A stretch of 64,000 nucleotides of DNA from an uncultured Chloroflexia bacterium (GCA_963728205.1 CAVSIV010000006.1:1120001-1184000), one strand, 5' to 3'. Shown: positions 1,118-26,081, counted from the stretch's first letter. Made by a program: numbers and translations. Notes: generated by a model from the letters alone, not told the origin.

Positions 1118-2107
1118 ATGACCCAGCACACGACCGAACCCGCGCCGCCGGCGGAGGGTCTCCGCGATGCCATCACGTCGATCCGCCGCGAGATCGCGCG
1201 TGTCGTCGTCGGCCAGCAGGCGTTCGTCGACCGCGTGCTCGTCGCGCTGCTCACCGGCAACCACGCACTGATCGAGGGTGTGCCGGGGCTCGCGAAGACG
1301 TTGACCGTCTCGACGCTCGCCGCCGCCATCGAGTGCACCTTCGCGCGCATCCAGTTCACGCCCGACCTGCTGCCGGCCGACATCACCGGCACGCTGGTCT
1401 TCAACCCCCGCGACGGCGACTTCTCCGTGCGGACGGGCCCGATCTTCGCGAACGTGGTGCTGGCCGACGAAATCAACCGCGCGCCGGCGAAGGTGCAGTC
1501 GGCACTGCTCGAGGCGATGCAGGAGCGCCAGGTCTCGATCGGCGGGGAGTCGCACTCGCTGCCGACGCCGTTCCTCGTGCTCGCCACGCAGAACCCGATC
1601 GAACAGGAAGGAACGTACCCGCTCCCGGAAGCGCAGCTCGACCGCTTCATGCTGAAGATCCTCGTCGGCTACCCGTCGCGCGAGGAGGAGCGGGCGATCC
1701 TCGCGCAGTCGCTGGACGGCGGCGCCGGCACGGTGACGCCGGTGGTGAGCGTCGAGCAGGTGGCGGCGCTGCAGGAGGCGACGCGCCGCATCGAGGTCAA
1801 CGACCGGCTACGCGAATACGTGATCCGTCTGGTCGAGGCAACGCGCGACCCGGCGCGCTACCAGCTGCCGGCACTCGCGCCGTTGATCGAGTTCGGGGCA
1901 TCGCCGCGCGCCGGCGTGTTCCTCGCGCGCGGCGCGCAGGCGTATGCGTTCGTGCAGGGGCGCACCTACGTGCTGCCCGAGGACGTGAAGGCGCTCGCAC
2001 CGGATGTGCTGCGCCACCGGCTCGTCCTGACCTACGAGGCGGAGGCGCAGGGCGTGAGCGCCGAAGCGATCGTGGCGCGCCTGCTGGAGGGCGTCGGGAT
2101 TCCCTAG
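1118..2107 (+). CDS. MoxR-family AAA+ ATPase
   Basis: Walker [66 protein letters not shown]. Confidence 0.95.
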   Translation: MTQHTTEPAPPAEGLRDAITSIRREIARVVVGQQAFVDRVLVALLTGNHALIEGVPGLAKTLTVSTLAAAIECTFARIQFTPDLLPADITGTLVFNPRDGDFSVRTGPIFANVVLADEINRAPAKVQSALLEAMQERQVSIGGESHSLPTPFLVLATQNPIEQEGTYPLPEAQLDRFMLKILVGYPSREEERAILAQSLDGGAGTVTPVVSVEQVAALQEATRRIEVNDRLREYVIRLVEATRDPARYQLPALAPLIEFGASPRAGVFLARGAQAYAFVQGRTYVLPEDVKALAPDVLRHRLVLTYEAEAQGVSAEAIVARLLEGVGIP

Positions 2108-3037
2108 ATGGCGCTGCTCCGTCGCCGTCGCGAGACGGCACCCGCGACCCCGGGGAGCACGTTCCTCACGCCGGACCTCGCCGCGCGCGTGCGGCGGCTC
2201 GAGATCCGCACGCGGCGGCTCGCCGGCACGCAACTTGCCGGCAACTACCGCAGCATCTTCCGCGGCACCGGCATCGAGTTCGCGGAGGCGCGCGAGTACA
2301 CGCCGGGCGACGACGTGCGCCGCATCGACTGGAACGTCACCGCGCGCATGGGCACACCATGGGTGAAGGAGTACGTCGAGGAGCGCGAGCTGAACCTCGT
2401 GTGCGCCGTCGACCTCTCCGCGTCGCAGCTCGTCGCGCGGCCCGCTACCGGCCGGCTGGCCGCCGCGGCGGAGCTGACGGCGCTCCTCGGCTTCGCCGCC
2501 GTGCAGAACCACGATCGCGCCGGCCTGCTCACGTTCACCGATCGCGTCGAGCGCTTCGTCCCGCCGCGGCACGGCACGCGCCACGTGATGCGCATGATGC
2601 GCGACGTCTTCCTGCACGACGAGACGCATCGCGGCACGAACATCGGCGCGGCCGCGGACTATCTCGCGCGCGTGCTGCCGCGCCGGTCCGTCGTGTTCGT
2701 CATCTCCGACTGGCTCGACACCGGGTTCGCGCAGTCGCTCCGCGCGCTGGCGCGGCGCCACGACGTGACCGCGCTGGTGCTCATCGACCCGATCGATCTC
2801 GCACTCCCCGACCTCGGGCTCGTCGCCGTCGAGTCCGCGGAGGACGGCACGCGCGCATGGCTCGACACGTCCGACCGCGAGGTGCGTGAGCGCTACGCCG
2901 CTGCCGCGCACGACCGCGCCCGCCACCGCCACGAGCTCCTCGCGATCGCGGGCGTGGACGAGGTGGAGGTGCGGCTGGACGCCGACATCGTCGACCCGCT
3001 GGCCGCGTACTTTCGACTGCGGGCGGGCCGGCGGTGA
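2108..3037 (+). CDS. DUF58 (VWA-like) protein, MoxR partner
   Basis: GIEFAEAREYTPGDDVRRIDWNVTAR motif; DLSAS MIDAS-like site; abuts moxR. Confidence 0.9.
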   Translation: MALLRRRRETAPATPGSTFLTPDLAARVRRLEIRTRRLAGTQLAGNYRSIFRGTGIEFAEAREYTPGDDVRRIDWNVTARMGTPWVKEYVEERELNLVCAVDLSASQLVARPATGRLAAAAELTALLGFAAVQNHDRAGLLTFTDRVERFVPPRHGTRHVMRMMRDVFLHDETHRGTNIGAAADYLARVLPRRSVVFVISDWLDTGFAQSLRALARRHDVTALVLIDPIDLALPDLGLVAVESAEDGTRAWLDTSDREVRERYAAAAHDRARHRHELLAIAGVDEVEVRLDADIVDPLAAYFRLRAGRR

Positions 3038-4041
3038 GGTCGCGCCTGCGGGTCCCGGTCGCGGCGTCGTTCATCGCGGTGGTCGCCGCGCTGTCGCTCG
3101 GCATCGCGTCGGCACCGCTTGCGCGGGCGCAGCAGGTGTCGGCGCCGGTCGACGTTCGCACCCACCTCGACATCGCGACGGCGACGCTCGGACAGCACAT
3201 CACGCTGACCGTCGTCGTGCGGCACGCGCAATCGCTGCTCGTGACGATCGCGCGGCCCGCCGCGCAGTCCGACCTCGACATCGCTGCCGGGGATCCCCAG
3301 GACACCGTGCCCGATGCCACGGGCGCTCAGGCCACGACGACTGCGACGTTCGTGCTCGCGCCCTTTGCGCTCGGCGACGTGTCGATCCCGCCGATCCGCG
3401 TGTCGTGGCTGCGCAGCGACGGGACCACGGGCGCCGTCTCGGTGCAGCCGCCGGCGATCCCGGTCACACCCATCCGCACCGCCGGCGACGACGCGTTGCG
3501 TCCGTTGAAGCCCCAGGTCGCCGTCGGCGGCGCCCCGCCGGCATGGTTGCGCGCGGCCGCGGCGACTGCCGTGGGGGGCGTCGTCCTCGCGACCGTGGCT
3601 GCGGTCGCGCTGTGGCGGCGCCGGCGTCGGCTGCGCGCGGCGAGCGAGCGATCGCTGGAACCCGACGTGACACCGGAGCAGCGGGCGCGCGCGCGACTCG
3701 ACGGGCTGTTGCTGCCGTCGCGCAACACCGCCGACCACTACCAGCACTTCTACGGCACGATCTCGCTCGCCGTGCGCTCCTACCTCGAGGACCGTTTCGG
3801 CTTCAACGCGACCGCGCTCACGACGACCGAGCTCGAGCGACGCATGACCGAGCGCGGCGTCGGTCGCTGGCAGGCGCGCCTCGTCGCCGGCCTGCTCGAC
3901 CGTTGCGACGGCGCGGTCTACGCGCACGACTATCCCGACCCCGCCTCGGCCGACCACGATCTCACGCTCGCGTACGAGATCGTGGAGCTGTCGCGGCCGC
4001 ATCTCGAGCCGTCGGGACCGGAGCCGGCGGTGCGCGCATGA
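3034..4041 (+). CDS. Secreted/membrane protein of the Bat-like operon (BatD/DUF4381-like)
   Basis: Signal peptide, Ig-like beta region, TM helix, C-terminal YLEDRFG...TTTEL motif; GTGA overlap with the upstream gene. Confidence 0.65.
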   Translation: MRSRLRVPVAASFIAVVAALSLGIASAPLARAQQVSAPVDVRTHLDIATATLGQHITLTVVVRHAQSLLVTIARPAAQSDLDIAAGDPQDTVPDATGAQATTTATFVLAPFALGDVSIPPIRVSWLRSDGTTGAVSVQPPAIPVTPIRTAGDDALRPLKPQVAVGGAPPAWLRAAAATAVGGVVLATVAAVALWRRRRRLRAASERSLEPDVTPEQRARARLDGLLLPSRNTADHYQHFYGTISLAVRSYLEDRFGFNATALTTTELERRMTERGVGRWQARLVAGLLDRCDGAVYAHDYPDPASADHDLTLAYEIVELSRPHLEPSGPEPAVRA

Positions 4042-4982
4042 GCTTCGCGACGCCGGCCGTGCTCGCGCTGCTCCCCCTGCTCGCGATCGCCGCGCTCGCC
4101 CTCGCGGGCGCGCGCCGTCGCCGGGGCGCGGCGCTGCTCTTCGCCGATGCCGCCGCCGTCGCATACGCCGCGCGGACGACGTGGCGGCTTCGTCTGCGCT
4201 GGCTGCCGACGGCGCTGCGGTGGCTCGCGGTCGTCCTCGTCGTGCTCGCCCTCGCACGCCCGCGCCAGGGGCTCGCGACCACCACGATCCCCGAGGAAGG
4301 CATCGACGTGGTCGTGACCGTCGATGTATCCAGCTCGATGACCACGTCGATCGGCCCGAACGAAACGCGCGTCTCCGCGGCGCGACGCGTCGTGGGCGAC
4401 TTCGTCGACAGCCTGCAGGGCGACCGGGTCGGGCTCGTCGTCTTCCAGTCGCGCGCGCTGACGCTCTCACCGCTCACGCTCGATCAGGAGGCGATCAAGC
4501 AGCGCATCGCGACGCTGAAGCCGGGGCTGATCCAGGACGGGACGGCGATCGGACTCGGCGTGAGCGAGTCGCTGAGCCTGCTGCGCGACTCGCCGGCCAA
4601 GAGCCGCGTGATCGTGTTGCTGACCGACGGCGAGAACAATTCGGGCGACATCGACCCGCAGACTGCGGCGCAGCTCGCGAAGGCGCTCGGCGTGCGCATC
4701 TACACCATCGGATTCACGGGCGGCTCGTTCGGCGGCGGCGGCGTGGACGCGAAGTCGCTGCAGCGCGTGGCCGACACGACGGGCGGCGAGTTCTTCGATG
4801 CGAATACGCAGGCCGACCTCGCGTCGGCGTACGCGCAGATCGGGAACCTCGAGCGCTCGCGGGTCGGGCAGCGCACGTTCACGAGCTTCCGCGAGCTCGC
4901 CCCGCCGCTGATCGCGGCGGCGCTCGCGCTGCTCACGGTCGAGGCGGTACTGCGCGCGTCGTGGCTGCGGCGGTACCCCTGA
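4038..4982 (+). CDS. VWA-domain membrane protein (BatA-like)
   Basis: ATG at 4038 (ATGA overlap); LALARP, DVSSS MIDAS, DRVGLVVF, GTAIGLG, LLTDGENNSG. Confidence 0.88.
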   Translation: MSFATPAVLALLPLLAIAALALAGARRRRGAALLFADAAAVAYAARTTWRLRLRWLPTALRWLAVVLVVLALARPRQGLATTTIPEEGIDVVVTVDVSSSMTTSIGPNETRVSAARRVVGDFVDSLQGDRVGLVVFQSRALTLSPLTLDQEAIKQRIATLKPGLIQDGTAIGLGVSESLSLLRDSPAKSRVIVLLTDGENNSGDIDPQTAAQLAKALGVRIYTIGFTGGSFGGGGVDAKSLQRVADTTGGEFFDANTQADLASAYAQIGNLERSRVGQRTFTSFRELAPPLIAAALALLTVEAVLRASWLRRYP

Positions 4983-6841
4983 TGGGGACGCTCGCGTCGT
5001 TCGACTTCGGCCAGCCGCTGGCACTGCTCGCGCTGCTCGCGGTCGTGCCGGCGGCATGGGCCGCACGCGTCGCGCTGCGCCGGCGGCGCGCGGCGGACGC
5101 CGCGTACGGCGGCCCGGCCGAACTGCGCCTCGGCGTCACGGAGTGGCGCGCGCGCGCCCGGCTGGCGCTGGCGCTGTTGGCGATCGTCGCGCTCGCACTC
5201 GCGCTCGCACGGCCGCGATGGGGGCACGCGCAGGTGCCGGTCGAGCGGCGCGGGATCGACGTGGTGATCGCGCTCGACGTGTCGCGCTCGATGAGCGCGG
5301 CGGACGTCGCGCCCACCCGTGCGCAGGCGGCCGCCGCCGGCCTGGACGCGATGATCGAGCACCTGCAGAGCGACCGCGTCGGCCTCGTCACCTTCGCCGG
5401 CACGGCGTTCATGCGGGCCCCGCTGACCACCGACCTCGGCGCGATCAGCCAGCTGGTGGTACGCGCGCAGTCGGACTCGCCGCTGGTGCGTCCCGGGACC
5501 GACCTCGCCGGCGCGCTCGACACCGCGCTCGCGACGCTGAACGTGAAGGACGCGGCGGGGTCGCAGGTGATCGTCCTCGTCTCAGACGGCGAGGGCGTCG
5601 CCCCCGGCGACCTCCAGGGCGCCTTGCAGCGCGCGCAGGACCGGCACGTGCGCGTCTACACGGTGGTGGACGGAACCGAGGCGGGCGGTGCGTTGACCGA
5701 CGCAGCAGCGGCGCCGGGCGAGGTGAGCCACGCCGATCCCGGCGCGCTCCAGCAGATCGCTCAGGCAACCGGTGGGACGTTCCGGCCGGTGGGCTCCGTC
5801 GCGGGTCTCGCGGTGGACTTCGCGCGCATGAGCCAGTCGCTGTTCGACCGGGAGACGCAGCGGGCGCCCGTCGAGCGGTTTCAATGGTTCCTCGGCGCAG
5901 CGCTGCTGCTCCTGGTCGCGCAGGCGGCGCTGGCCGACGTCGCCCCGCGCGGCCGACCGAGCGTCCGCACGCTGGCGCTGCCCGGGCTTGCTCTGCTCGG
6001 CGCCGTCCTGGTGGGGTGCGGCGGCACGGCGCTCTACCGCGCGGTAACGAGCGGCAACCGCGAGTATGCGGCGAGCCACTACGACGTCGCGCTCACGGAC
6101 TACCAGCAGGCGGAGTCGATTGCGCCGGACGACCCGGGCGTGCTCTATGACCTTGCGACCACGCTGCACCAGCTCCGGCGCTACGAGGAGTCGTCGGTGA
6201 CGGCGACGAAGGCGCTCGCCACCGCGCCGGACCCGGAGCTGGCGTTCCGGCTGCAGTACCTCGCCGGGGGGACGGCGTTCTCGCGCGGCGCACTCGACGA
6301 GGCGCGCACCGCGTACATCGCGGCGCTGCGCGACCACCCGGAGGACCGGGACGCGAAGGCGAACCTCGAGCTGGTCTTGCGCGCGCTCGGGCAGCAGGCG
6401 AACCAGCAGAGCGGGCAGCAGCAGGGGCAGGGGCAGGGGCAGGACGAGCCCGGCGGCGCCGGCACCGGCGCGGGCCAGGGCCAGCAGGGCCCGTCGGGCC
6501 AACCGGGGCAGCCCGACCAGGGCGCGCAGCCGGGTGCCGGCACGCCCGTGCCGGGGGGCACCGGCGGAGCCTCGCCGGGGGGCGGCAGCGGTAGCGGCCA
6601 GCCGAACGCATCGGGCACGCCGGGAGCCGCAGGCGGGGGCGACACCAGTGGGATGCCGGGCGACAGCGCGGACGGCGAAGCGGCGCGTGCACAGGCGGCG
6701 GCGGCGCTGAACCAGGCGCTGCAGGCGCTCGGTCCCAACGTCACGCCCGAGGAGGCCCGCCGGATCCTGGAGCTTGCCCAGCGCGCGAACGCGCTGGAGG
6801 GGCTGCTACCGCCGAAGGACGGGACCGTCCCCGCGCGCTGA
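4982..6841 (+). CDS. VWA + TPR fusion protein (BatB/BatC-like) with Gln/Gly-rich linker
   Basis: ATG at 4982 (TGATG coupling); ALARPRWG, DVSRS MIDAS, SDGE; TPR region ending DAKANLEL; low-complexity Q/G/P tail. Confidence 0.85.
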   Translation: MGTLASFDFGQPLALLALLAVVPAAWAARVALRRRRAADAAYGGPAELRLGVTEWRARARLALALLAIVALALALARPRWGHAQVPVERRGIDVVIALDVSRSMSAADVAPTRAQAAAAGLDAMIEHLQSDRVGLVTFAGTAFMRAPLTTDLGAISQLVVRAQSDSPLVRPGTDLAGALDTALATLNVKDAAGSQVIVLVSDGEGVAPGDLQGALQRAQDRHVRVYTVVDGTEAGGALTDAAAAPGEVSHADPGALQQIAQATGGTFRPVGSVAGLAVDFARMSQSLFDRETQRAPVERFQWFLGAALLLLVAQAALADVAPRGRPSVRTLALPGLALLGAVLVGCGGTALYRAVTSGNREYAASHYDVALTDYQQAESIAPDDPGVLYDLATTLHQLRRYEESSVTATKALATAPDPELAFRLQYLAGGTAFSRGALDEARTAYIAALRDHPEDRDAKANLELVLRALGQQANQQSGQQQGQGQGQDEPGGAGTGAGQGQQGPSGQPGQPDQGAQPGAGTPVPGGTGGASPGGGSGSGQPNASGTPGAAGGGDTSGMPGDSADGEAARAQAAAALNQALQALGPNVTPEEARRILELAQRANALEGLLPPKDGTVPAR

Positions 6842-9226
6842 CCCGGCGCCGTCGTCTTCGCCACGTCGCCGACGGAGTGGAACGAGCCGGCGCGCGACGA
6901 GCCGCCACAGCCGGCGCTGCACGCGCGCCGCATCGCCGTCCAGCTCGCGCGCCTGCTCGTCGTTCTCCGCGCTCGCCCGGTCGCCGCCATAGCGCGAGGC
7001 CGTGTAGGACCGCGCGAGCCGGTCGAGCGCGGCCGGCTCGTCGACCCTGGTACGAAGCGAGCGTGCGGCCTCGATCGGCGTCGCGGTGCTGCGTGGCGTC
7101 GCTCCTGCCCAGGCGCCGAGGCGCTGCACCTTCGCCCAGCGCCGCACCGGCGGCGCGAGGCCGCGGAACTGCCACTCCCACGCGGTGCGCCCGGTCAAGC
7201 CGAGCACGACCACGACCGCCGCCACGCCGAACATCACCTCGAGCATCGCGACGACAATCGACCCGAGCGCGCCTCCGCGGGTGCTCGCCGCGGGCGCCTG
7301 GTGGCCAATCGTGCCGCCGTTGTCGATCGCCGCGAACTGGTCGAGCAGCGACTGCTCGAAGGCGTCCGGGAACGCGAGCGGCGAACCGCCGTTCTGAGCA
7401 CTCTGAGCGCCGGCGTCGCTCGCGGGAAGCGTCGCCGCCGGGCGCGTCGGCGTGGGGTTGAAGTCCACCCAGCCGAGCCCGGCGAAGTAGACCTGCGGCC
7501 ATGCCCACGCGCGGAGTTCGCTGACCTGGTACGTCTTCGTCGCCGAGTTGAGGTCGGCCGGGTCGAGCGCGAATCCGGTCGCGACGCGCGTCGGGATCCC
7601 GAGCGTGCGCAGCAGCACCGCCATCGCGGACGCGTGGTAGTCGAAGTAGCCCTGCTTCGAGTCGAAGAGGAAGTAGTCGACGGCGTCGTGCAGCGGCGGC
7701 GGGTCCTGCATGTTCAGATCGAACGGGTAGTGGTCGCGCAGGTACTGCTCGACGCGACGGGCGGACTCGTAGGGGTTCTGCGTGTTCCCGACGATCTGAC
7801 GCGCGAGCTGGCGCACCTCCGGCGGGAGCGCGGACGGGAGCTGCGTGTAGCGCGTCGCGATCGCGGCGGGGTAGTCACGGCCGGACTGCTCCAGGGTCTG
7901 CGCCGACGCGACGGAGATCGTGCCGACGGTCGTGTACTCGTCGCCCGGCTCGACGCGATTCGTGGGTGCGAGTCCGACCACGTCGTCGCCCCCGGCGCCG
8001 GTGATCGCCTGCGCGTCGACGCTGGTCGCGAGCGGCTCACCGGGTGAGAGCAGGCGCGTCATCGGGATTTCGTTCCCGACGATCTTCACGGTCACGGACA
8101 CGGGCTCGCGGAGCTGAGCGCGGGTGAGCGGTGTGCCGAACGATGCGGCCTGGACGCTGGTACCGGTCATCGGCTGCTTCGACTCGGAGGAGATCTTCCA
8201 GCCGCCGCCGGTGTACTCGTCGTACACCGCGCCGCGCAGGTTGACCGGCGCGGGGGCGGTGACGTCCATCAGCACGTTCGACGACAGCGCCATCTTGCCG
8301 CGCAGGGGGAAGACGTCGGAGAAGGCGTGCGCGGGCAGCGGCTTCTTCGAGTTGATGCCGACGAACAGCCGGCCGACGCGATCGAGTCGCTGGGTCACGG
8401 GCTGCATGACGGCGACCCAGCGATCGGCGATCGGCCCCCAGTGGTTCGCGGTCGGGATCAGCCACGCGGAGAGCACGAGCACGAGCCCGACCCATGCGCC
8501 CGCGAACAGCACCTCCATCGACATGAAGTCGGGCAGCGCGACGTGCTCGCCCTGCCACCGCCGGATCGCCTGCAGGAAGTGCATCCGCGCGAGCAGGAGC
8601 ACGGCGGCGAACAGGAAGACGACAAACGCGAACGACGGCTGCCCCGGGAGGTACGAGATGTTCGTGAGCAGTACGAAGCCGCCCGGGACGAGCGCGGCCC
8701 ACGCGTTGTGCCACCGGACGACGGCCCACGCCGAAACGTATGAGATCGCCCACATCAGCAGGACGAGCAGGAGCACGAACGGAAGCGGGTCGCTGGAGAC
8801 GCCGCCGGTGAGCGCCGCCTGACCCCAGTCGTGCAGCCGGAGCCAGAACTCGGACCAGCGCGCGGCAAACCCCGCGTCGAGGGGGTCGGCGATCTGCATC
8901 GTCTGCAGTACCTCGCCCAGGATCACGATCGCGCCGAGGCTGACGCCGACCACGTGGAGCGGCAGCGCGCGACCCCGGGTGCTGGCCAGCACCCAGCCGA
9001 TGCCCACGCCGATGAAGGCGGCGAGCGTCAGCGACGGCATCTCGTTCACCCACTTCGTGGACTCGAGTGAGCCGACGACGGGAAGCTGGACGAGGAGGAG
9101 GAGGAGGAGGGTCAGCCACGCCTCCCACGACCGCAGGAACGCGAAGCGCCCGGGCTCGGCGGGCTCGGCCTGCGAGGGCGAGACGCCGCCGGGCCGGTAG
9201 AGCACGTCCCAGGACATCTCGGCCAT
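6806..9226 (-). CDS. Membrane transglutaminase-like (TgpA/DUF3488-DUF4129 type) protein, catalytic triad substituted
   Basis: ATG at 9226 coupled to the upstream stop; multi-TM N-terminus, LRGAVYDEYTGGGW, core YFLFDSKQGYFDYHASAMAVLLRTLGIPTRVATGF...AWAWPQVYFAGLGWVDFNPTP. Confidence 0.88.
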   Translation of the reverse strand: MAEMSWDVLYRPGGVSPSQAEPAEPGRFAFLRSWEAWLTLLLLLLVQLPVVGSLESTKWVNEMPSLTLAAFIGVGIGWVLASTRGRALPLHVVGVSLGAIVILGEVLQTMQIADPLDAGFAARWSEFWLRLHDWGQAALTGGVSSDPLPFVLLLVLLMWAISYVSAWAVVRWHNAWAALVPGGFVLLTNISYLPGQPSFAFVVFLFAAVLLLARMHFLQAIRRWQGEHVALPDFMSMEVLFAGAWVGLVLVLSAWLIPTANHWGPIADRWVAVMQPVTQRLDRVGRLFVGINSKKPLPAHAFSDVFPLRGKMALSSNVLMDVTAPAPVNLRGAVYDEYTGGGWKISSESKQPMTGTSVQAASFGTPLTRAQLREPVSVTVKIVGNEIPMTRLLSPGEPLATSVDAQAITGAGGDDVVGLAPTNRVEPGDEYTTVGTISVASAQTLEQSGRDYPAAIATRYTQLPSALPPEVRQLARQIVGNTQNPYESARRVEQYLRDHYPFDLNMQDPPPLHDAVDYFLFDSKQGYFDYHASAMAVLLRTLGIPTRVATGFALDPADLNSATKTYQVSELRAWAWPQVYFAGLGWVDFNPTPTRPAATLPASDAGAQSAQNGGSPLAFPDAFEQSLLDQFAAIDNGGTIGHQAPAASTRGGALGSIVVAMLEVMFGVAAVVVVLGLTGRTAWEWQFRGLAPPVRRWAKVQRLGAWAGATPRSTATPIEAARSLRTRVDEPAALDRLARSYTASRYGGDRASAENDEQARELDGDAARVQRRLWRLVARRLVPLRRRRGEDDGAGSARGDGPVLRR

Positions 9227-10497
9227 CAGCGCATCCCCTGTGAGCGGAGGACCGGCGCCGGCACGCCCTCGATGCCGGAGCTGAGGACGCGACCGAGGTC
9301 GTCTTCGTGCTTCACGGTGTACGTGTAGATGCCGCCGGCGGCGAGCGTGCTGTACGCGTTGAGCGTGCTGCGGCCCGGCCCGAACGTGTCGGCCTCGAGC
9401 AGCACGGCCGCAACCTTCACGCCGCGCGCGGCGAGCGACATCATCGTGAGTGCCCAGTCCTCGCTCGACGACGGCGTGACCACGACCACGGTCGTGTGGC
9501 GGCCGAAGCGCCGCGACTCTTCGAGCAGGAGGTTCGTCAGCGGCACGTCGCCCACGGCGCGCGCGAGCGCGAGCGACTCGAGGATGCGCGTGTAGTGGTT
9601 CTGCCCGCGGTCGGGCGAGTCGATGCGCAGGTCCTCGCCGAACGAGATCAGGCCCACCGAGCGATGAGCGTTGATGAAGTAGCGCGCGATCGACGCACAG
9701 ATGCGGACCGCGGCCTCCTCGGTGCCGTCCTCGCCCTCGCCGACGTGTTCCGACTCCTGCAGGTCCAGCACGATCCAGATGTCGGACGCGGGGTCGAGCT
9801 CGAACTGCTTCACCATCGGCTCGCCCGTGCGGGCGGTGGCCGGCCAGTGCACGCGGTTGAAGGAGTCGCCGGGCTCGTACGGACGCACGCCAGCGACATT
9901 CGGCGTCACGTTGTGCGTGCGTCGACGGAAGCGGCCCTCGCCGGGAAGGTTCGCGGGCGGGATGTAGAAGTTGGGCAGCTCGGGAGCGTTCGGATAGACC
10001 AGGACGGTGGTGACATCGCCGAACGTGCGCTCGAAGCGGAAGAACCCGAACGGATCGGTCGCGATGACGGAGAGTGGGCCGAGCTCGTAGAGCCCGCGCA
10101 CGCGCGTCGGCGTGCGGTACGACCACGCCGAGACGCCGCGCGAGCCGAGCGTGATCACGCGCCGCGAGGCGTGGCCGGGCACTGACGATGGGTCCTCGAC
10201 CTCGAGCCAGATCTTCGGGAGCAGCGAGCGCGAGCGGATGACGATGCTGCCCTCGAGGTGCTGGCCCTGCGTGACGCGGTGCGAGCGCCGCGAGACCTCG
10301 ACCTCGAGGCCGTTCGCCATCGAGCGAGTCCAGAGGAACACGACCGGGACCGCGATCGCCGCGGCGTAGGCGACGCGAAAGAGCAGCCAGAAGCCGGTGG
10401 CGAAGCCCACGACGACGCAGAGCACGGCGGTGACCGCCACCAGCAGCACGGTCTGGTGACGGCGCGACCAGGAGAGGGCGCGAAGCGTGCGCTCCAC
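9226..10497 (-). CDS. DUF58-domain membrane protein
   Basis: Probable GTG start at 10497; two TM helices; GVRPYEPGDSFNRVHWPATARTG motif. Confidence 0.88.
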   Translation of the reverse strand: MERTLRALSWSRRHQTVLLVAVTAVLCVVVGFATGFWLLFRVAYAAAIAVPVVFLWTRSMANGLEVEVSRRSHRVTQGQHLEGSIVIRSRSLLPKIWLEVEDPSSVPGHASRRVITLGSRGVSAWSYRTPTRVRGLYELGPLSVIATDPFGFFRFERTFGDVTTVLVYPNAPELPNFYIPPANLPGEGRFRRRTHNVTPNVAGVRPYEPGDSFNRVHWPATARTGEPMVKQFELDPASDIWIVLDLQESEHVGEGEDGTEEAAVRICASIARYFINAHRSVGLISFGEDLRIDSPDRGQNHYTRILESLALARAVGDVPLTNLLLEESRRFGRHTTVVVVTPSSSEDWALTMMSLAARGVKVAAVLLEADTFGPGRSTLNAYSTLAAGGIYTYTVKHEDDLGRVLSSGIEGVPAPVLRSQGMR

Positions 10498-10504
10498 CAG
10501 CCGC

Positions 10505-11464
10505 CTACGAAGCTCCGCCGCGAGCGCGCACGCCGGGGACCGGCACGCGCTCGATGCACTCGTCGACGATCTGTGCGCTGTCGACCTCACGGACGCGGGC
10601 GCCGGGGGCCACGATCACGCGGTGGCCGAGCGTGGCGTAGGCGAGCAGCTTCACGTCGTCCGGCTGGACGAAGTCGCGACCGTCGAGCATGGCGTAGGCC
10701 TGCGTCGCGCGCATCAGCGCCAACGACCCGCGCGGCGAGGCACCGAGGTACGCGCTCTCGTGCGCGCGCGTCGCGTTCACCAGGCTCACGATGTACTGCT
10801 TGATCAGCGGGTCGACGTAGATCTCGCGCACGGCAGCCTGCAGCTGCAGCACCTCCGTCGGGTTCGTCACCTCGGTCAGCGCGTCGATCGGGTGCTCGGT
10901 TTGCTGCGCGTCCATCACCAGCACCTCGTCGGTCGGGGACGGGTAGCCGAGGTGGATGCGCATGAAGAAGCGGTCGAGCTGGGCTTCCGGCAGCGGGAAC
11001 GTCCCCTCGTACTCGATCGGGTTCTGGGTGGCCATCACGATGAACGGACGCGGGAGCGGGTGCGTCACGCCGTCGACCGTGATCTGGTGCTCCTCCATCG
11101 CCTCGAGCAGCGCCGACTGGGTCTTCGGCGTGGCGCGGTTCACCTCGTCGGCGAGGACGACCTGCGCCGTGATCGGACCGGGGCGGAACTCGAAGCTCCC
11201 GGTGCCCTGGCGGTAGATCGACACACCGGTGATGTCCGACGGCAACAGGTCCGGCGTGAACTGGATGCGAGAGAACTGCCCGCCGGTGGAGCGGGCCAGC
11301 GCCCGGGCGAGCATGGTCTTGCCGACGCCGGGGACGTCCTCGATCAGGAGGTGCCCCCCGCAGAGGAGCGTCACGAGCGCGAGCCGCGCCTCGTGCGTCT
11401 TGCCGATGATCACGCGTTCGACGTTGTCGAGGATCTGCTCTGCAAGCTGCTTGGCGTTGTCCAC
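10505..11464 (-). CDS. MoxR-family AAA+ ATPase (second copy)
   Basis: [65 protein letters not shown]. Confidence 0.95.
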
Positions 11465-11596
11465 GTAGCCCCCTGCTCAGACTACCGAAAGAAGTGCGAA
11501 CGTCGCGGAGCAGCCGCGACGCCCTGGTGGGATGACGCCGTGAGAGGCGGGAGTCCGCCCCGGGACCTGCCGCTTGGCCCGCGGGACTCGCAGGTC

Positions 11597-11605
11597 AGTA
11601 TAACA
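11597..11605 (-). promoter_or_regulatory. Putative extended -10 promoter (TGtTATACT) for the moxR-DUF58-TGase operon
   Basis: Minus-strand TGTTATACT about 130 bp upstream of the moxR start. Confidence 0.5.
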
Positions 11606-11681
11606 AGGTGTCCGGGCGCATCATCGTGATGGGCAGCGGTCGCGGGGTTCCTTCCGCCGGGGCCTCACGTACCATCGAGGC

Positions 11682-12875
11682 ATGTCTGAATCCCCGCGCC
11701 GGCCCCGGCCCGGCTGGTATCCCCGTCCTGAACTGATCGTCGCCGTCGTGATCATTGCAGCCGTCGTGCTGGTCGGCGGTGCCGTGCTGCGCTCGCGCGG
11801 CACCGGCAGCGCGGCCTCCGCGAGCGTGCAGGTCGCGACCAGCACAGCGGCCGCGGGCGGCGCGCCGGCGGCACCCAGCGTCGCCCTCGCGACGTCGACG
11901 CCGACCCCGGCGCCCACCGAGACGCCGACCCCGACCCCAACCCCGACGGCCCCGCCCGCGCCCGTCAGGCCGAGCGTGGACCTGCGCCCGGCGCGAGTGG
12001 GGAACGGCGACACGATGCTCGTGGTCGTCACGGCGCCGGCGGGCGACACCGGTTCGATCACGTTCATGGGCCAGGCCTTCCCGCTGACCCGCAACGGCAG
12101 CGAGCTCTTCACCCTCATCGGCGTGCCGATCGGCGCGGACACCGGGCCCGGCACGCTGAGCGTGGCGCTGCAGGACGCCGACGGCACGGCCGCCGCCACG
12201 CTCAGCGCCGACTACACCGTGTTCCACGTGGACCGGCCGATCGACAACCTCACGCTCACCCAGTCGGAGGCGTCCGTGCTGACCGCGGACGCGGGCGCGA
12301 AGGAAGCGCAGCTGCGCACCGAGCAGTTCTCGCACTTCGACCGCGGCCGTCGCTGGTCGGAGGTGTTCCAGTGGCCGGTGACCGGACCGATCACGACGTA
12401 CTTCGGCCAGGGACGCCGCATCAACGGGGGGCCTCCGGGCGACTTCCACAGCGGCACGGACATCGCCGTCGATGAGGGCACGCCGGTCCACGCCGCGGCG
12501 CCCGGCCGTGTGGCGTTCGCCGCGGAGATGCCGATCCGCGGCAACACCGTCGTGATCGACCACGGCGCCGGCGTGATGACGAGCTACTCGCACCTGTCGG
12601 AGATCGACGTCACGGTGAACCAGTCGGTCGACGCCGGCGAGGTCATCGGCAAGGCCGGGCACACGGGCCTCGCGACCGGGCCGCACCTGCACTGGGAGGT
12701 GCTGATCTACGGCACGGACGTCGACGGCATCGAGTGGACGAAGACCGACTTCACGCCGCCATCGAGTCCGCCGCCGACGGGGACGGCGACCGCGACCGCG
12801 ACGGCCGCAGCCTCAGCGACCCCGGCCGAGGCTACGACCGAACCGTCCACGACGGGGACGCCGTCGCCTCGATGA
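11682..12875 (+). CDS. M23-family metallopeptidase with N-terminal anchor and Pro/Thr linkers
   Basis: HSGTD (HxxxD), YSHL, TGPHLHWE (HxH); TACCAT -10 six nt before the ATG. Confidence 0.9.
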   Translation: MSESPRRPRPGWYPRPELIVAVVIIAAVVLVGGAVLRSRGTGSAASASVQVATSTAAAGGAPAAPSVALATSTPTPAPTETPTPTPTPTAPPAPVRPSVDLRPARVGNGDTMLVVVTAPAGDTGSITFMGQAFPLTRNGSELFTLIGVPIGADTGPGTLSVALQDADGTAAATLSADYTVFHVDRPIDNLTLTQSEASVLTADAGAKEAQLRTEQFSHFDRGRRWSEVFQWPVTGPITTYFGQGRRINGGPPGDFHSGTDIAVDEGTPVHAAAPGRVAFAAEMPIRGNTVVIDHGAGVMTSYSHLSEIDVTVNQSVDAGEVIGKAGHTGLATGPHLHWEVLIYGTDVDGIEWTKTDFTPPSSPPPTGTATATATAAASATPAEATTEPSTTGTPSPR

Positions 12876-14548: not shown

Positions 14549-15673
14549 TCAGGAGAAGGCCTCGCGGATGCGGTCGAACAGCCCGCCGTTGGCGCCGTTC
14601 TTCGGCACCTCGGGCGTGCCCAGCACGCCGGCGAGCTGCTCGACGAGCTGGCGCTGCTCCTCGGTGAGCCGCGTCGGCGTCACGACGTGCAGGCGCACGA
14701 GCAGGTCGCCGCGACCGGCCCCGCGCAGGTGCGGGACGCCCTTGCCCTTGAGCACCTGCACGTCACCGTGCTGCACGCCGGGCTTCAGCTCGACGTCGAC
14801 GTCCTCGCCGTCGAGCGTCGGCACCGGGACGGTCGCGCCGAGCGCGGCCTGCGCGATGTTCAGGGGCAGCTCGTAGACGAGGTTGTCGTCGACGCGCCGG
14901 AACTGCTCGTGCGGCTCGACCTCGAGCTCGATGAAGAGGTTGCCGGACGGCCCGCTGCGCTCACCCGCGTCGCCCTCGCCGGCGAGGCGGATCTGCGCGC
15001 CGTTGTCGACGCCGGCCGGCACCTTCACGACGCGCGTGACGGTATTGCGGCGCTTGCCGCGGCCGCGGCAGGTCTTGCACGGGTCGGTGACCACGGTGCC
15101 CTCGCCGCGGCAGGTCGCGCAGGTGGTGACGTTCACGAACTGCCCGAACAGCGACTGCTGCACGCGTCGCAGCTCGCCGGAGCCCTTGCACTCCGGGCAC
15201 GTGCCGCGCTGCGAGCCCTTCACCTGGCCGGAGCCGCGGCAGTCGGGGCAGGTCTCGGTCCGCTCGTACGTGATCTCCTTGTCGGTCCCGAACACCGCCT
15301 CCTCGAACGCGATGCGGAAGCGCGCCTGAAGGTCGGCACCGCGCTGCGGACCGGCGCGGCGCGTGGCCGTGCCGCGGAAGAAGGCATCGAAGATGTCGCC
15401 GAAGCCGCTGAATCCCTCGAAGCCGCTGAAGCCCTGCGCGCCGCCCGCGCCGACGCCGGCCATGCCCATGCGGTCGTAGCGCTGGCGCTTCTCGGGGTCG
15501 GAGAGGATCTCGTAGGCAGCGTTGATCTGCTTGAAGCGCTGCTCCGCCCCTTCCTCCTTGTTGCGGTCGGGGTGGAACTCCATGGCCAGGCGCCGGAACG
15601 CGCGCTTGATGTCGGCCTGGGTCGCGTCGCGCGGCACGCCGAGGGTCTCGTAGAGGTCAGCCTGAGCGGTCAT
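14549..15673 (-). CDS. dnaJ: Chaperone DnaJ
   Basis: J-domain HPD, G/F region, four CxxCxGxG zinc-finger repeats. Confidence 0.97.
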   Translation of the reverse strand: MTAQADLYETLGVPRDATQADIKRAFRRLAMEFHPDRNKEEGAEQRFKQINAAYEILSDPEKRQRYDRMGMAGVGAGGAQGFSGFEGFSGFGDIFDAFFRGTATRRAGPQRGADLQARFRIAFEEAVFGTDKEITYERTETCPDCRGSGQVKGSQRGTCPECKGSGELRRVQQSLFGQFVNVTTCATCRGEGTVVTDPCKTCRGRGKRRNTVTRVVKVPAGVDNGAQIRLAGEGDAGERSGPSGNLFIELEVEPHEQFRRVDDNLVYELPLNIAQAALGATVPVPTLDGEDVDVELKPGVQHGDVQVLKGKGVPHLRGAGRGDLLVRLHVVTPTRLTEEQRQLVEQLAGVLGTPEVPKNGANGGLFDRIREAFS

Positions 15674-15737: not shown

Positions 15738-16526
15738 TCATCGATCCGCATCCGCCGCGGGGACGGTGAGCTGCTCGCGAACGGCCGCGAGCGTGTCCGT
15801 GCCGACCCCAATCCCCGCCAGGTACGCGTCCGCGCCTCCGTGCCGAGCCTCGAGCCCATCGAGGAAGATCGCGATCGCGTCCGCCGGCACGCCGTAGCGG
15901 CGGCGCACCTCGTCCGGATTGTCCGCCGCCGGCGCGCGGCCGTGGGTCGCGAGCCAGCCCAGCCAGCGCTCGGTGTCGCGGTTCGACAGCGCAAAGTCGG
16001 CGAGGATCGTCTCGCGGTCGACGCCCGCGACGCTCATGGCCAGAGCGGTGACGACGCCGGTGCGGTCCTTGCCGGCGGTGCAGTGGAGCACGAGAGGGTA
16101 GGTGGCGGGATCGGCCAGCGCTTCGAAGACGGCGCGGAAGGCGTCCTCGGCATAGCGCAGGTACCCGAGGTAGCGCTCCCCCGAGATGCCGGCGCCGAAC
16201 TCCCGATCGAGCTCCTCGCTCGCGCCGTCGGGCAGTGGCGGCAGGTGCAGATAGCGTGCGCCGATGTCGGCCGCCGGGTGTCCGTCGCGAGCGCGCGCCT
16301 CGGCCGGGCGGCGGAGATCGATCACGGTGGCGACGCCGAGGCCGCGGAGGCGATCGCGATCGGCGGGCGTCATGTCCTCGAGCGCGCCCGAGCGGAAGTA
16401 CCGGCGCCATGCCGTCGCGCGCCCGTCGCGGGCGGCGTAGCCGCCGATGTCGCGGAAGTTCCAGCAGGCCTCGAAGGGCACGTGTCGGGCGACGAAGGCG
16501 CCCGCGCCCGTGCCGGGCTCAGTCAT
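15738..16526 (-). CDS. Tyrosine/dual-specificity protein phosphatase (IphP/MptpB-like)
   Basis: NFRDIGGY, YFRSG, VIDLR, P-loop HCTAGKDRTG. Confidence 0.9.
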   Translation of the reverse strand: MTEPGTGAGAFVARHVPFEACWNFRDIGGYAARDGRATAWRRYFRSGALEDMTPADRDRLRGLGVATVIDLRRPAEARARDGHPAADIGARYLHLPPLPDGASEELDREFGAGISGERYLGYLRYAEDAFRAVFEALADPATYPLVLHCTAGKDRTGVVTALAMSVAGVDRETILADFALSNRDTERWLGWLATHGRAPAADNPDEVRRRYGVPADAIAIFLDGLEARHGGADAYLAGIGVGTDTLAAVREQLTVPAADADR

Positions 16527-17259
16527 GCGGCGGCTCCTCGAGCAGCAGCGCCTCGAGCCGATCGAAGACGTCGTCGGTCACGCCGTGCGCGCGCAGGAAG
16601 CCGCGGGCCGAGCCGTAGCGCTCGGTCATGACGCCGAGCATCTCCTGCATCGCCGGCGGGGCGACGCCCAGCGCCGGGTTCGGCGCCTCGCCGGCCGCGA
16701 TCACGCCGGCGGCGCGCAGCCGCGAGACGAGCAGGTCCATCGCCTCCTGGCTGACGGCGTAGTCGTGCAGGATCGCGTCGTGGTCGACGCCGAGCGAGTC
16801 CAGCACCAGCGCGGCCAGGACGCCGGTGCGGTCCTTCCCCGTCACGCAGTGAAAGACGGCCGGGTAGGCCGCCTCGTCGGCGAGCAGGTGCACGGCCTGC
16901 GCCCACGCGGCGCCGTTGCCCTCGAGCAGCGCCACGTACTCCGGATCCCAGCGGCCGCTCTCGCGCGCCTCGAACTTCGACTCGGCGTTGCCCATCGGCA
17001 GGTGGTGGCGGCGGGCGGGCGGGCGGGCCAGCAGGCCGAAGCCGCGCGCGTCGTTCGCCTCGCCGGCGCTGCGCAGGTCGATCACGGTCGCGATACGCAG
17101 CGCCTCGCGTGTGCGCGCCGCCTCGTCCGCGGACATCCGCTGCAGCTCGCCGGAGCGGAACAGCCGGCGCCAGCGCACGACGCGGCCGTCGGCCGCGGCG
17201 TAGCCGCCGAGGTCGCGGAAGTTGTAGACGCGTTCGAAGGGGAAGTGCCGCTCGAGCAT
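16519..17259 (-). CDS. Tyrosine/dual-specificity protein phosphatase (IphP/MptpB-like), paralog
   Basis: NFRDLGGY, LFRSG, VIDLR, P-loop HCVTGKDRTG; start at ATG 17259 or GTG 17265. Confidence 0.9.
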   Translation of the reverse strand: MLERHFPFERVYNFRDLGGYAAADGRVVRWRRLFRSGELQRMSADEAARTREALRIATVIDLRSAGEANDARGFGLLARPPARRHHLPMGNAESKFEARESGRWDPEYVALLEGNGAAWAQAVHLLADEAAYPAVFHCVTGKDRTGVLAALVLDSLGVDHDAILHDYAVSQEAMDLLVSRLRAAGVIAAGEAPNPALGVAPPAMQEMLGVMTERYGSARGFLRAHGVTDDVFDRLEALLLEEPPHD

Positions 17260-17361
17260 GGTCACGTCAGTCCGACCCTTCCTGCGGCGTGGCGCAAGCA
17301 GCCCGCGGGCGTCCACGGTACCCCGGGACGCCCGCGCTGCGTGTCGTGGACGGAACGCGGG

Positions 17362-19269
<1,908 letters not shown>

Positions 19270-25037: not shown

Positions 25038-26081
25038 TCAGGGTAAGAAGCCGGGACCCATCGGGTTCTGAATCACGCCATTACGCGTGATCTCGAAGTG
25101 GAGGTGCGGTCCGGTCGCGTGGCCGGTCTCGCCGATCGCACCCAGCAGGTCACCGGCGCTGACATGTTGGCCGGGGACGACGTTCATGCTCGAGAAGTGC
25201 GCGTACGTCGTCTCGTAGCCGTCCCCGTGATCGATGATGACGTGGTAGCCGTAGGAACAGCAGGGATTGCCGCCCGCGAACACGACGGTCCCGGCGCGCG
25301 CAGCCACCACCGGCGCGCCCCACGGCGCCCCGACGTCGATGCCGAGCGGGTGGGACGGGCCGAAGTACGAGGTGATGGGGCCGGAGGCCGGCCACACCCA
25401 GCTATCGGTTGCGGCCGGGGCCGCGACTCCCGGGGTGGGCCGCAGCGAGGGGGCCACCGCCGGCAGCTTCTTGCCACCGGGCACCAGGATCAGCGAGTCC
25501 GAGTGCAGGCTGTTCGGGTCGTCCTGGAGGCCGTTGGCGGCGAACTCAACGATGTCGCGCGGGTCGGCACCGTAGCGCGTGGCGATCTCGGAGACGGTCT
25601 CGCCGTACCGCACGGAGTGGATGATGCCCTCCACCGAGGGGATCTGCAGCGTCGTCCCGACGGTGAGCACGTCGCGATCGCTGATGTCGTTGTTGTTCCA
25701 GAGGATGTAGTCGGGCGCGATGTGGTAGCGCGTGGCGATCGCACCGACCGTGTCACCCTCCTGCACCTGGTACTCGAAGAAGATCGGCATGCGCTCTGCG
25801 CGCGCCGCCGTCACGGTGCCGGATCCGTCGGAGACGGTGGCCGCGCGCTGCTGATCCGCGAGCACGGCCACAGACTGAGCGGTGCCGTTCTCCGCGCTGA
25901 CGACCTGGTCCTGCACGGTCGCGGGCGCCGTCACCGTGAGCGGCAGCGGCGATGCGCCAATCTCGCCGGGCGTCGCCGCCGCGCCGGCCGCGCTGGCGAG
26001 GCCGGGAAGGGAGACGGCGCTGGCGAGAAGCGTGGGCTGCGGAGTCGTGCTCGTGACGGTCACCGGGAAGCGGCCGAGCAA
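25038..26081 (-). CDS. LysM x2 + M23 peptidase (true start probably upstream of the called TTG)
   Basis: YQVQEGDTVGAIATRY and HSVRYGETVSEIATRY LysM repeats; HPLGID, YAHF, TGPHLHFE. Confidence 0.9.
   Translation of the reverse strand: MLGRFPVTVTSTTPQPTLLASAVSLPGLASAAGAAATPGEIGASPLPLTVTAPATVQDQVVSAENGTAQSVAVLADQQRAATVSDGSGTVTAARAERMPIFFEYQVQEGDTVGAIATRYHIAPDYILWNNNDISDRDVLTVGTTLQIPSVEGIIHSVRYGETVSEIATRYGADPRDIVEFAANGLQDDPNSLHSDSLILVPGGKKLPAVAPSLRPTPGVAAPAATDSWVWPASGPITSYFGPSHPLGIDVGAPWGAPVVAARAGTVVFAGGNPCCSYGYHVIIDHGDGYETTYAHFSSMNVVPGQHVSAGDLLGAIGETGHATGPHLHFEITRNGVIQNPMGPGFLP

Follow-up and report, generated by a model that had tools for sequence, protein, structure and literature searches.

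What does selection maintain in a transglutaminase-like gene when all three residues of the catalytic triad have been exchanged? This question is raised by a locus in a 64,000-nucleotide stretch of DNA from an uncultured Chloroflexia bacterium (GCA_963728205.1, CAVSIV010000006.1:1120001-1184000), hereafter called the window, which means the whole stretch analyzed. The last gene of a MoxR–DUF58–transglutaminase-like (TG-like) trio encodes a membrane protein of the TgpA family with Phe528, Trp574, and Asn590 at the positions of the catalytic Cys, His, and Asp/Glu. A preliminary description of the locus had taken these substitutions for selected repurposing into a non-catalytic binding or scaffold protein. 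According to our analysis, the triad-less state is shared by a large clade of relatives, and the gene encodes, with high confidence, a pseudoenzyme under selection. Coordinates of the features are collected in Table 1.

The open reading frame runs from 9226 to 6806 on the minus strand and comprises 806 residues and a stop codon without interruption. The protein belongs to the Transglut_core/TgpA family by descent, as shown by profile, sequence match, fold, and architecture. With 80.6 bits (cut-off 23), the Transglut_core match extended over all profile positions (1–108 of 108). The only solved structure matched by sequence search was TgpA of Pseudomonas aeruginosa (PDB 6g49; phmmer, E 9.5e-14), and in this alignment F528, W574, and N590 stand opposite the catalytic Cys, His, and Asp. 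The AlphaFold2 model, built from a 24-row alignment, had a mean predicted local distance difference test score (pLDDT) of 80.9. Its best Foldseek matches were 6g4h and 6g49 (E ~1e-12, probability 1.00, template modeling score 0.70 relative to the target), with alignments spanning about 290–310 columns at ~20% identity; therefore the whole outside domain, and not the core alone, has the TgpA fold. A weak match at rank 38 (E 0.26) was a chain of the erythrocyte ankyrin-1 complex, 8cs9_X.

The architecture was also of the TgpA type, with a polytopic N-terminal domain, a TG domain predicted to lie outside the cytoplasm, a further membrane helix, and a DUF4129 tail. Hydropathy analysis revealed hydrophobic segments at residues ~28–54, 63–81, 88–113, 151–169, 200–218, 239–257, and 657–675. 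In the long loop between the last two of them, a beta-rich domain precedes the TG-like core; the fold is that of the TgpA periplasmic domain. Lys/Arg-rich tails are cytoplasmic according to the positive-inside rule. Because 28 Lys and Arg residues were counted among the C-terminal 131, the tail with DUF4129 is probably located in the cytoplasm and the 258–656 loop, including the TG domain, outside of it. The Pfam scan of the protein, in which matches up to E 0.01 were listed, gave no match to PF11992 (DUF3488 in source names), a family precomputed for many of its homologues. No NCBIfam family was found for the TG-like protein or the DUF58 protein.

The motifs GYFDYHASA (from residue 526), RAWAWPQVY (572), and VDFNPTP (587) surround the three exchanged residues. 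The three codons were exactly where the preliminary description had placed them, and its observation of intact motifs, membrane segments, and reading frame was confirmed. The Cys-His-Asp triad that it gives for TgpA-type proteins holds for TgpA; the nearest catalytic relatives, however, have Cys-His-Glu, a variant which its motif F[DE]PT already allowed. The protein thus lacks the Cys-His-Asp/Glu triad of transglutaminases and TG-like cysteine proteases, and it contains no cysteine among its 806 residues. Another cysteine acting as a substitute nucleophile, or an alternative Cys/His pair in the active site, is ruled out by this count. Cysteine was also absent from 55 of 76 full-length genomic sequences (the window and 75 other loci; five truncated loci were left out) and from 171 of the 237 triad-less proteins collected, vs. 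none of 169 proteins with Cys and His (C-H). Of the proteins in which His was kept and Cys was lacking, 21 of 56 contained no cysteine.

The closest relatives were taken as the best 120 database proteins, 45–65% identical and including the query. F-W-N was present in 118 of them; the others were one F-F-N protein and one truncated fragment. For the wider family, 1.84 billion cluster representatives were searched, and the three triad positions were read with a core profile, which found no core in 3 of 150 representatives. The nearer representatives displayed F-W-N, F-Y-N, F-F-N, Y-W-N, F-F-S, and similar states. Among those ~30–36% identical, C-H-E was found in 61 domains, S-H-E in 25, and G-H-E in 3. 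The triad-less clade can be described by the pattern [F/Y]-[W/Y/F]-[N/D/S], in which positions 528 and 574 almost always hold an aromatic pair (F-W, F-Y, F-F, Y-Y, or Y-F).

Phylogenetic trees were built from 129 full-length rows (700–950 residues, single domain, ungapped triad), after the removal of 22 rows such as fragments and three giant multi-domain proteins. In the FastTree reconstruction, 39 of 40 His-less rows together with one F-H-D row were set apart from the C-H-E and S-H-E relatives by a 100% branch, within which the F-W-N rows formed an 11-row clade, also with 100% support. When residues 524–536 and 570–595 were removed, IQ-TREE placed 28 of the 29 such rows in a 71-row sample behind a 100% branch. 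The trees are unrooted, and their simplest reading would be a single old swap of Cys-His for two aromatic residues. The C-H-E and S-H-E relatives that bear a source name are labeled Chloroflexi, Dehalococcoidia, or Anaerolineae.

Other variants of the triad were noticed in the same family. A subclade of ~950-residue proteins (P0373–P0455, relatives of P0165) had Y-Y-D in 74 of 83 members, and its sole named member is labeled Dehalococcoidia. The S-H-E group, with Ser instead of the nucleophile Cys, accounted for 25 of 129 full-length representatives (e.g., P0155, P0158, P0176, P0286). His and Glu were kept in this group, and the six pocket positions described below largely so; these proteins may be serine-nucleophile forms of a transglutaminase-like enzyme. 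The giant proteins P0230, P0238, and P0261 (2800–3140 residues) contained four TG-like domains each, of which domains 1–2 were without Cys (S-H-D, G-H-D, S-S-D) and domains 3–4 were C-H-E, with one C-H-D.

A scan of GTDB with one genome per species, using search patterns that favored the FNP motif, yielded 504 confirmed stretches encoding a relative. The analyses of loci rest on the best 80 of them, all from Chloroflexota and mostly from metagenome-assembled genomes (MAGs) of Dehalococcoidia. The 76 full-length genomic sequences had FWN in 69 cases, FFN in five, and FYS and FFS in one each. For 13 close pairs, the NG86 ratio of non-synonymous to synonymous substitution rates (dN/dS) was 0.065–0.378 over the whole gene and 0.016–0.233 over the TG core; the C-terminal part was the most relaxed segment in most pairs. 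The gene has therefore lost the triad and remained intact, conserved, and under purifying selection. The claim that the substitutions were selected and are not decay agrees with the F-W-N count among the closest relatives, with the branch recovered without the motif columns, and with dN/dS well below 1; orthologues were likewise found without Cys-His-Asp.

Changes outside the triad were traced by a comparison of columns among 40 triad-less, 57 C-H, and 32 x-H (His kept, Cys lacking) representatives. Conservation of six positions (Y329, W330, S435, Y502, G557, Y584) was 79–100% in the C-H rows and at least 72% in the x-H rows. In the triad-less group the same six were variable or fixed as another residue (L330 in 34/40, G435 in 36/40). 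These changes fit the loss of the whole catalytic or substrate pocket. Gains in bulk (Cys to Phe, His to Trp) are paired with losses (W330 to Leu, S435 to Gly), which suggests that the cleft has been filled. Binding through the old pocket, as the preliminary description had proposed, was not supported, since the six relaxed positions fit a filled and abandoned pocket at least equally well. In all three groups, 45 positions were at least 85% conserved; 13 of them lie up to residue 288, nine belong to the first outside domain, 21 to the TG core, and two to DUF4129. The shared polar residues included D146, R171, and N189 of the membrane domain and R286 just past it.

The partner genes have been retained along with the triad-less gene. 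In the window, an AAA_3-type MoxR gene, a DUF58 gene, and the TG-like gene follow each other on one strand with tight spacing. The probable DUF58 start is a GTG at 10497, 7 nt past the moxR stop, within a frame that is open up to 10590. At the next junction, TGATG, the DUF58 stop TGA and the TG-like start ATG share one base. DUF58 lay directly upstream of the TG-like gene in 77 of the 80 loci, and MoxR preceded DUF58 in 76 of 80; wherever one of them was missing (DUF58 in three loci), the DNA ended there. The DUF58 stop overlapped the TG-like start as ATGA in 45 of 77 loci and as TGATG in 7 of 77, and the spacing was between −8 and +16 nt in 76 of 77. The partnership with MoxR and DUF58 and the stop-start coupling are kept. 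The predicted complex of the DUF58 protein with TG-like residues 645–806 scored 0.00 against a mark of 0.32, which is no evidence either way. The motif of the vWA metal site is DxSxS; here the DUF58 protein encoded in the neighboring Bat-type operon (see below) has D-L-S-A-S, and the DUF58 partner has D-L-Q-E-S. Across 21 orthologues of the partner, Asp of D-L-Q-E-S was invariant and Leu nearly so, and the other three positions varied.

The explanation that we regard as probable is a pseudoenzyme with a filled cleft, serving a catalysis-independent role of the MoxR-DUF58-TgpA module. The protein would be a TgpA-family membrane protein that has lost the capacity to act, through thiol chemistry, as a transglutaminase or protease. 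All three triad residues (nucleophile Cys, His, and acidic residue) would have been swapped once, long ago, for Phe/Tyr, Trp/Tyr/Phe, and Asn/Ser/Asp, respectively, and this state would then have been held by selection in a large Chloroflexota lineage, mostly Dehalococcoidia. Judging from sequence comparison, the two aromatic residues together with the exchanges at W330 and S435 may fill the former cleft and stabilize the domain. The protein may act as a membrane-spanning scaffold, with the TG-fold domain presumably outside and the DUF4129 tail in the cytoplasm. The MoxR ATPase and the DUF58 protein, which is co-translated with the TG-like protein, would assemble or remodel this scaffold through a putative contact. 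We have moderate confidence in the role of the aromatic residues as structural fill and in that of the protein as a membrane scaffold of the MoxR-DUF58 module.

Several observations weigh against this explanation. The core profile was made from the F-W-N clade itself, a possible bias; it aligned the C-H-E proteins cleanly. The very strong conservation of F528 and W574 also fits a new binding site. The main rival, a neofunctionalized receptor in which the aromatic pair and Asn bind an envelope glycan, lipid, or peptide on the outside domain and signal across the membrane to DUF4129, DUF58, and MoxR, would account for the near invariance of positions 528, 574, and 590 (120, 118, and 119 of the 120 closest proteins), for an aromatic pair almost always retained across the wider clade, for the flanking motifs that have stayed in place, and for the TG core being, in several close pairs, the part with the lowest dN/dS. 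We nevertheless consider a receptor unlikely, as a pocket still binding a related ligand would not be expected to lose conservation at six neighboring positions, the identity of the residues shifts among subclades (W/Y/F and N/S/D), and no ligand or partner was indicated by this analysis.

The remaining points touch the integrity of this particular gene. The window protein has the rare residues Q578 (7493–7495) and D588 (7463–7465), where Glu is present in 116 and 118 of the 120 relatives, respectively. In comparison with its three nearest relatives, dN/dS was 0.37–0.40 for the whole gene and 0.16–0.35 for the core, values made uncertain by saturation (dS 0.73–0.82) and strong codon bias. Both would suit a decaying former transglutaminase gene or an assembly error. 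This is highly improbable in view of the intact 806-codon frame, dN/dS below 1 everywhere, the sharing of F-W-N with nearly all relatives and most genomic orthologues, and the preserved synteny and stop-start coupling. The unusual pair, moreover, recurs in other family members: all 11 rows with Q578 carry D588 (9) or N588 (2), and they are spread over all three triad groups. Because Q578 always occurs with Asp or Asn at 588, the two residues are a compensated, covarying pair on neighboring strands and not damage. An enzyme working with a different nucleophile or mechanism is very unlikely too. Conserved D529, beside F528, and E578 could be seen as candidates for such chemistry, but they are not new, being equally conserved in the catalytic relatives. 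A further point in favor is His300, which is specific to the triad-less rows (85% conserved, vs. Ser in 32% of the C-H rows). Against such an enzyme, residue 531 varies among the 120 relatives (H 58, F 44, Y 17), the protein is devoid of cysteine, and the column comparison found no new conserved polar set in the TG core of the triad-less rows.

Table 1. Features of the TG-like locus and its surroundings in the window.
Feature	Coordinates	Strand	Basis or remark
TgpA-family transglutaminase-like membrane protein, 806 aa	6806..9226	−	ORF translation, Pfam
N-terminal polytopic membrane domain, residues ~28–257	8456..9145	−	Hydropathy, model helices, conserved columns
Large inter-helix loop, residues 258–656, probably outside the cytoplasm	7259..8455	−	Foldseek, Arg-rich C-terminal tail
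Transglut_core (PF01841), residues 472–591	7454..7813	−	Pfam, 80.6 bits
Phe528 codon (TTC), catalytic Cys position	7643..7645	−	Alignment to TgpA
Trp574 codon (TGG), catalytic His position	7505..7507	−	Alignment to TgpA
Asn590 codon (AAC), catalytic Asp/Glu position	7457..7459	−	Alignment to TgpA
Last membrane helix, residues 657–675	7202..7258	−	Hydropathy 2.83; model helix 653–685
DUF4129 (PF13559), residues 697–762, probably cytoplasmic	6941..7138	−	Pfam, 31.2 bits
DUF58 protein, two hydrophobic helices near the N-terminus	9226..10497	−	Pfam, hydropathy
MoxR-type AAA+ ATPase (AAA_3, AAA_lid_2), first gene of the trio	10505..11464	−	Pfam, 214.8 bits
Convergent second MoxR operon, Bat (aerotolerance-like) type	1118..6841	+	Pfam
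Bat-type MoxR	1118–2107	+	
Bat-type operon DUF58	2108–3037	+	
BatD-like protein	3034–4041	+	
BatA-like VWA protein	4038–4982	+	
VWA+TPR protein	4982–6841	+	
dnaJ	14552–15673		hrcA-dnaK-dnaJ-prmA heat-shock cluster
dnaK	17365–19269		hrcA-dnaK-dnaJ-prmA heat-shock cluster
dnaA	59917–61302	+	~50 kb from the TG-like locus

The whole window is housekeeping chromosome with ~72% G+C. The convergent Bat-type operon and the TG-like gene share 36 nt at their 3′ ends (6806–6841), and a downstream second MoxR on the opposite strand was found in 58 of the 63 loci whose downstream DNA extends for 5.5 kb or more. The Bat-type operon is treated here as a conserved neighbor of the TG-like trio. Two tandem genes of the tyrosine phosphatase family (Y_phosphatase3; 15741–17316, minus strand) lie between dnaK and dnaJ. 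Two M23 peptidase genes, one divergent from moxR (11682–12875, plus strand) and one with LysM domains (25041–26081, minus strand), suggest an organism with a peptidoglycan wall. Neither an RNA family nor a tRNA was detected over the whole window with Rfam (gathering threshold) and ARAGORN, and the scan of 6500–12000 revealed no promoter-like site. The sole terminator-like site in this interval was a G+C-rich hairpin with a T-run in the moxR leader (11498–11524, minus strand); one such hairpin is not significant vs. 0.7 expected by chance. PADLOC assigned no family to the MoxR, DUF58, and TG-like proteins. A defense system was rejected in view of this result together with the housekeeping neighbors and the synteny kept across many MAGs of Chloroflexota, including Dehalococcoidia.

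The gene trio itself is known. The arrangement of MoxR (MRP subfamily), DUF58, and transglutaminase is described in the accessible text of PMC6803598, citing Wong and Houry (2012), and again in that of PMC12067865, so that the "undescribed envelope module" of the preliminary description was already in print (PMC6803598, PMC3507681). The triad-less clade, unlike the trio, appears to be undescribed, as no paper on it was found in a literature search conducted mostly without subscription journals. The closest characterized system is that of P. aeruginosa, where, according to the available part of PMC3507681, a MoxR-type gene, a DUF58-type gene, and tgpA (PA2875-PA2874-tgpA) are co-transcribed, the periplasmic domain of TgpA is active as a transglutaminase in vitro (CBZ-Gln-Gly/biotin-cadaverine assay), and tgpA is critical for viability. 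The same paper names P. fulva, P. mendocina, and P. stutzeri as further carriers of a cluster of this type. TgpA (PA2873) and the window protein are both polytopic membrane proteins with a homologous TG core and the same fold of the outside domain, but TgpA keeps the triad and its in vitro activity, whereas F/W/N and a complete lack of cysteine characterize the window protein. Chloroflexota relatives with C-H-E or S-H-E (e.g., P0153, P0175, P0286) have the same length, PF01841 with PF13559, and the flanking motifs at 30–36% identity; they differ in keeping His, Glu, and Cys or Ser as well as the pocket residues Y329, W330, S435, Y502, G557, and Y584.

The PFNA cluster of Bifidobacterium (pkb2-fn3-aaa-atp-duf58-tgm) has the same order of a MoxR-family ATPase, a DUF58 protein, and a polytopic transglutaminase-like protein, as far as it is covered by the accessible text of PMC6803598 and PMC12067865. 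It differs by the additional kinase and FN3 adhesin. Inactive transglutaminase-like domains of eukaryotes are known from EPB42 (erythrocyte protein 4.2), Rad4/XPC, and FBXO21, which, in the part of PMC10318531 that is available, have a transglutaminase/papain-like fold without catalytic residues and use it as a scaffold. These proteins are soluble or peripheral, with neither MoxR/DUF58 partners nor a membrane domain, and their triad losses are independent events.

For the family as a whole, selection on the module combined with the discarding of the triad in a large lineage represents a natural separation-of-function experiment: at least part of the role of the module would be independent of transglutaminase chemistry. 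Several of the closest proteins bear the source name "transglutaminase-like putative cysteine protease," and automatic names of this kind are probably functionally wrong for the triad-less clade. The remaining function should be looked for at the conserved positions of the membrane domain and on the non-catalytic face of the TG fold. A broader, tentative possibility, which we regard as speculative, is that the core function of the widespread MoxR-DUF58-TgpA module needs no transglutaminase chemistry at all, catalysis being an accessory that was dropped by a class-level lineage of Chloroflexota. The core function might then be membrane and envelope scaffolding, or transport or signaling carried by DUF4129 and by the polar residues conserved in the membrane domain, and a stacked aromatic pair would have taken the place of Cys-His. 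If this is true, the critical role of TgpA in the viability of P. aeruginosa may also rest on a non-catalytic function.

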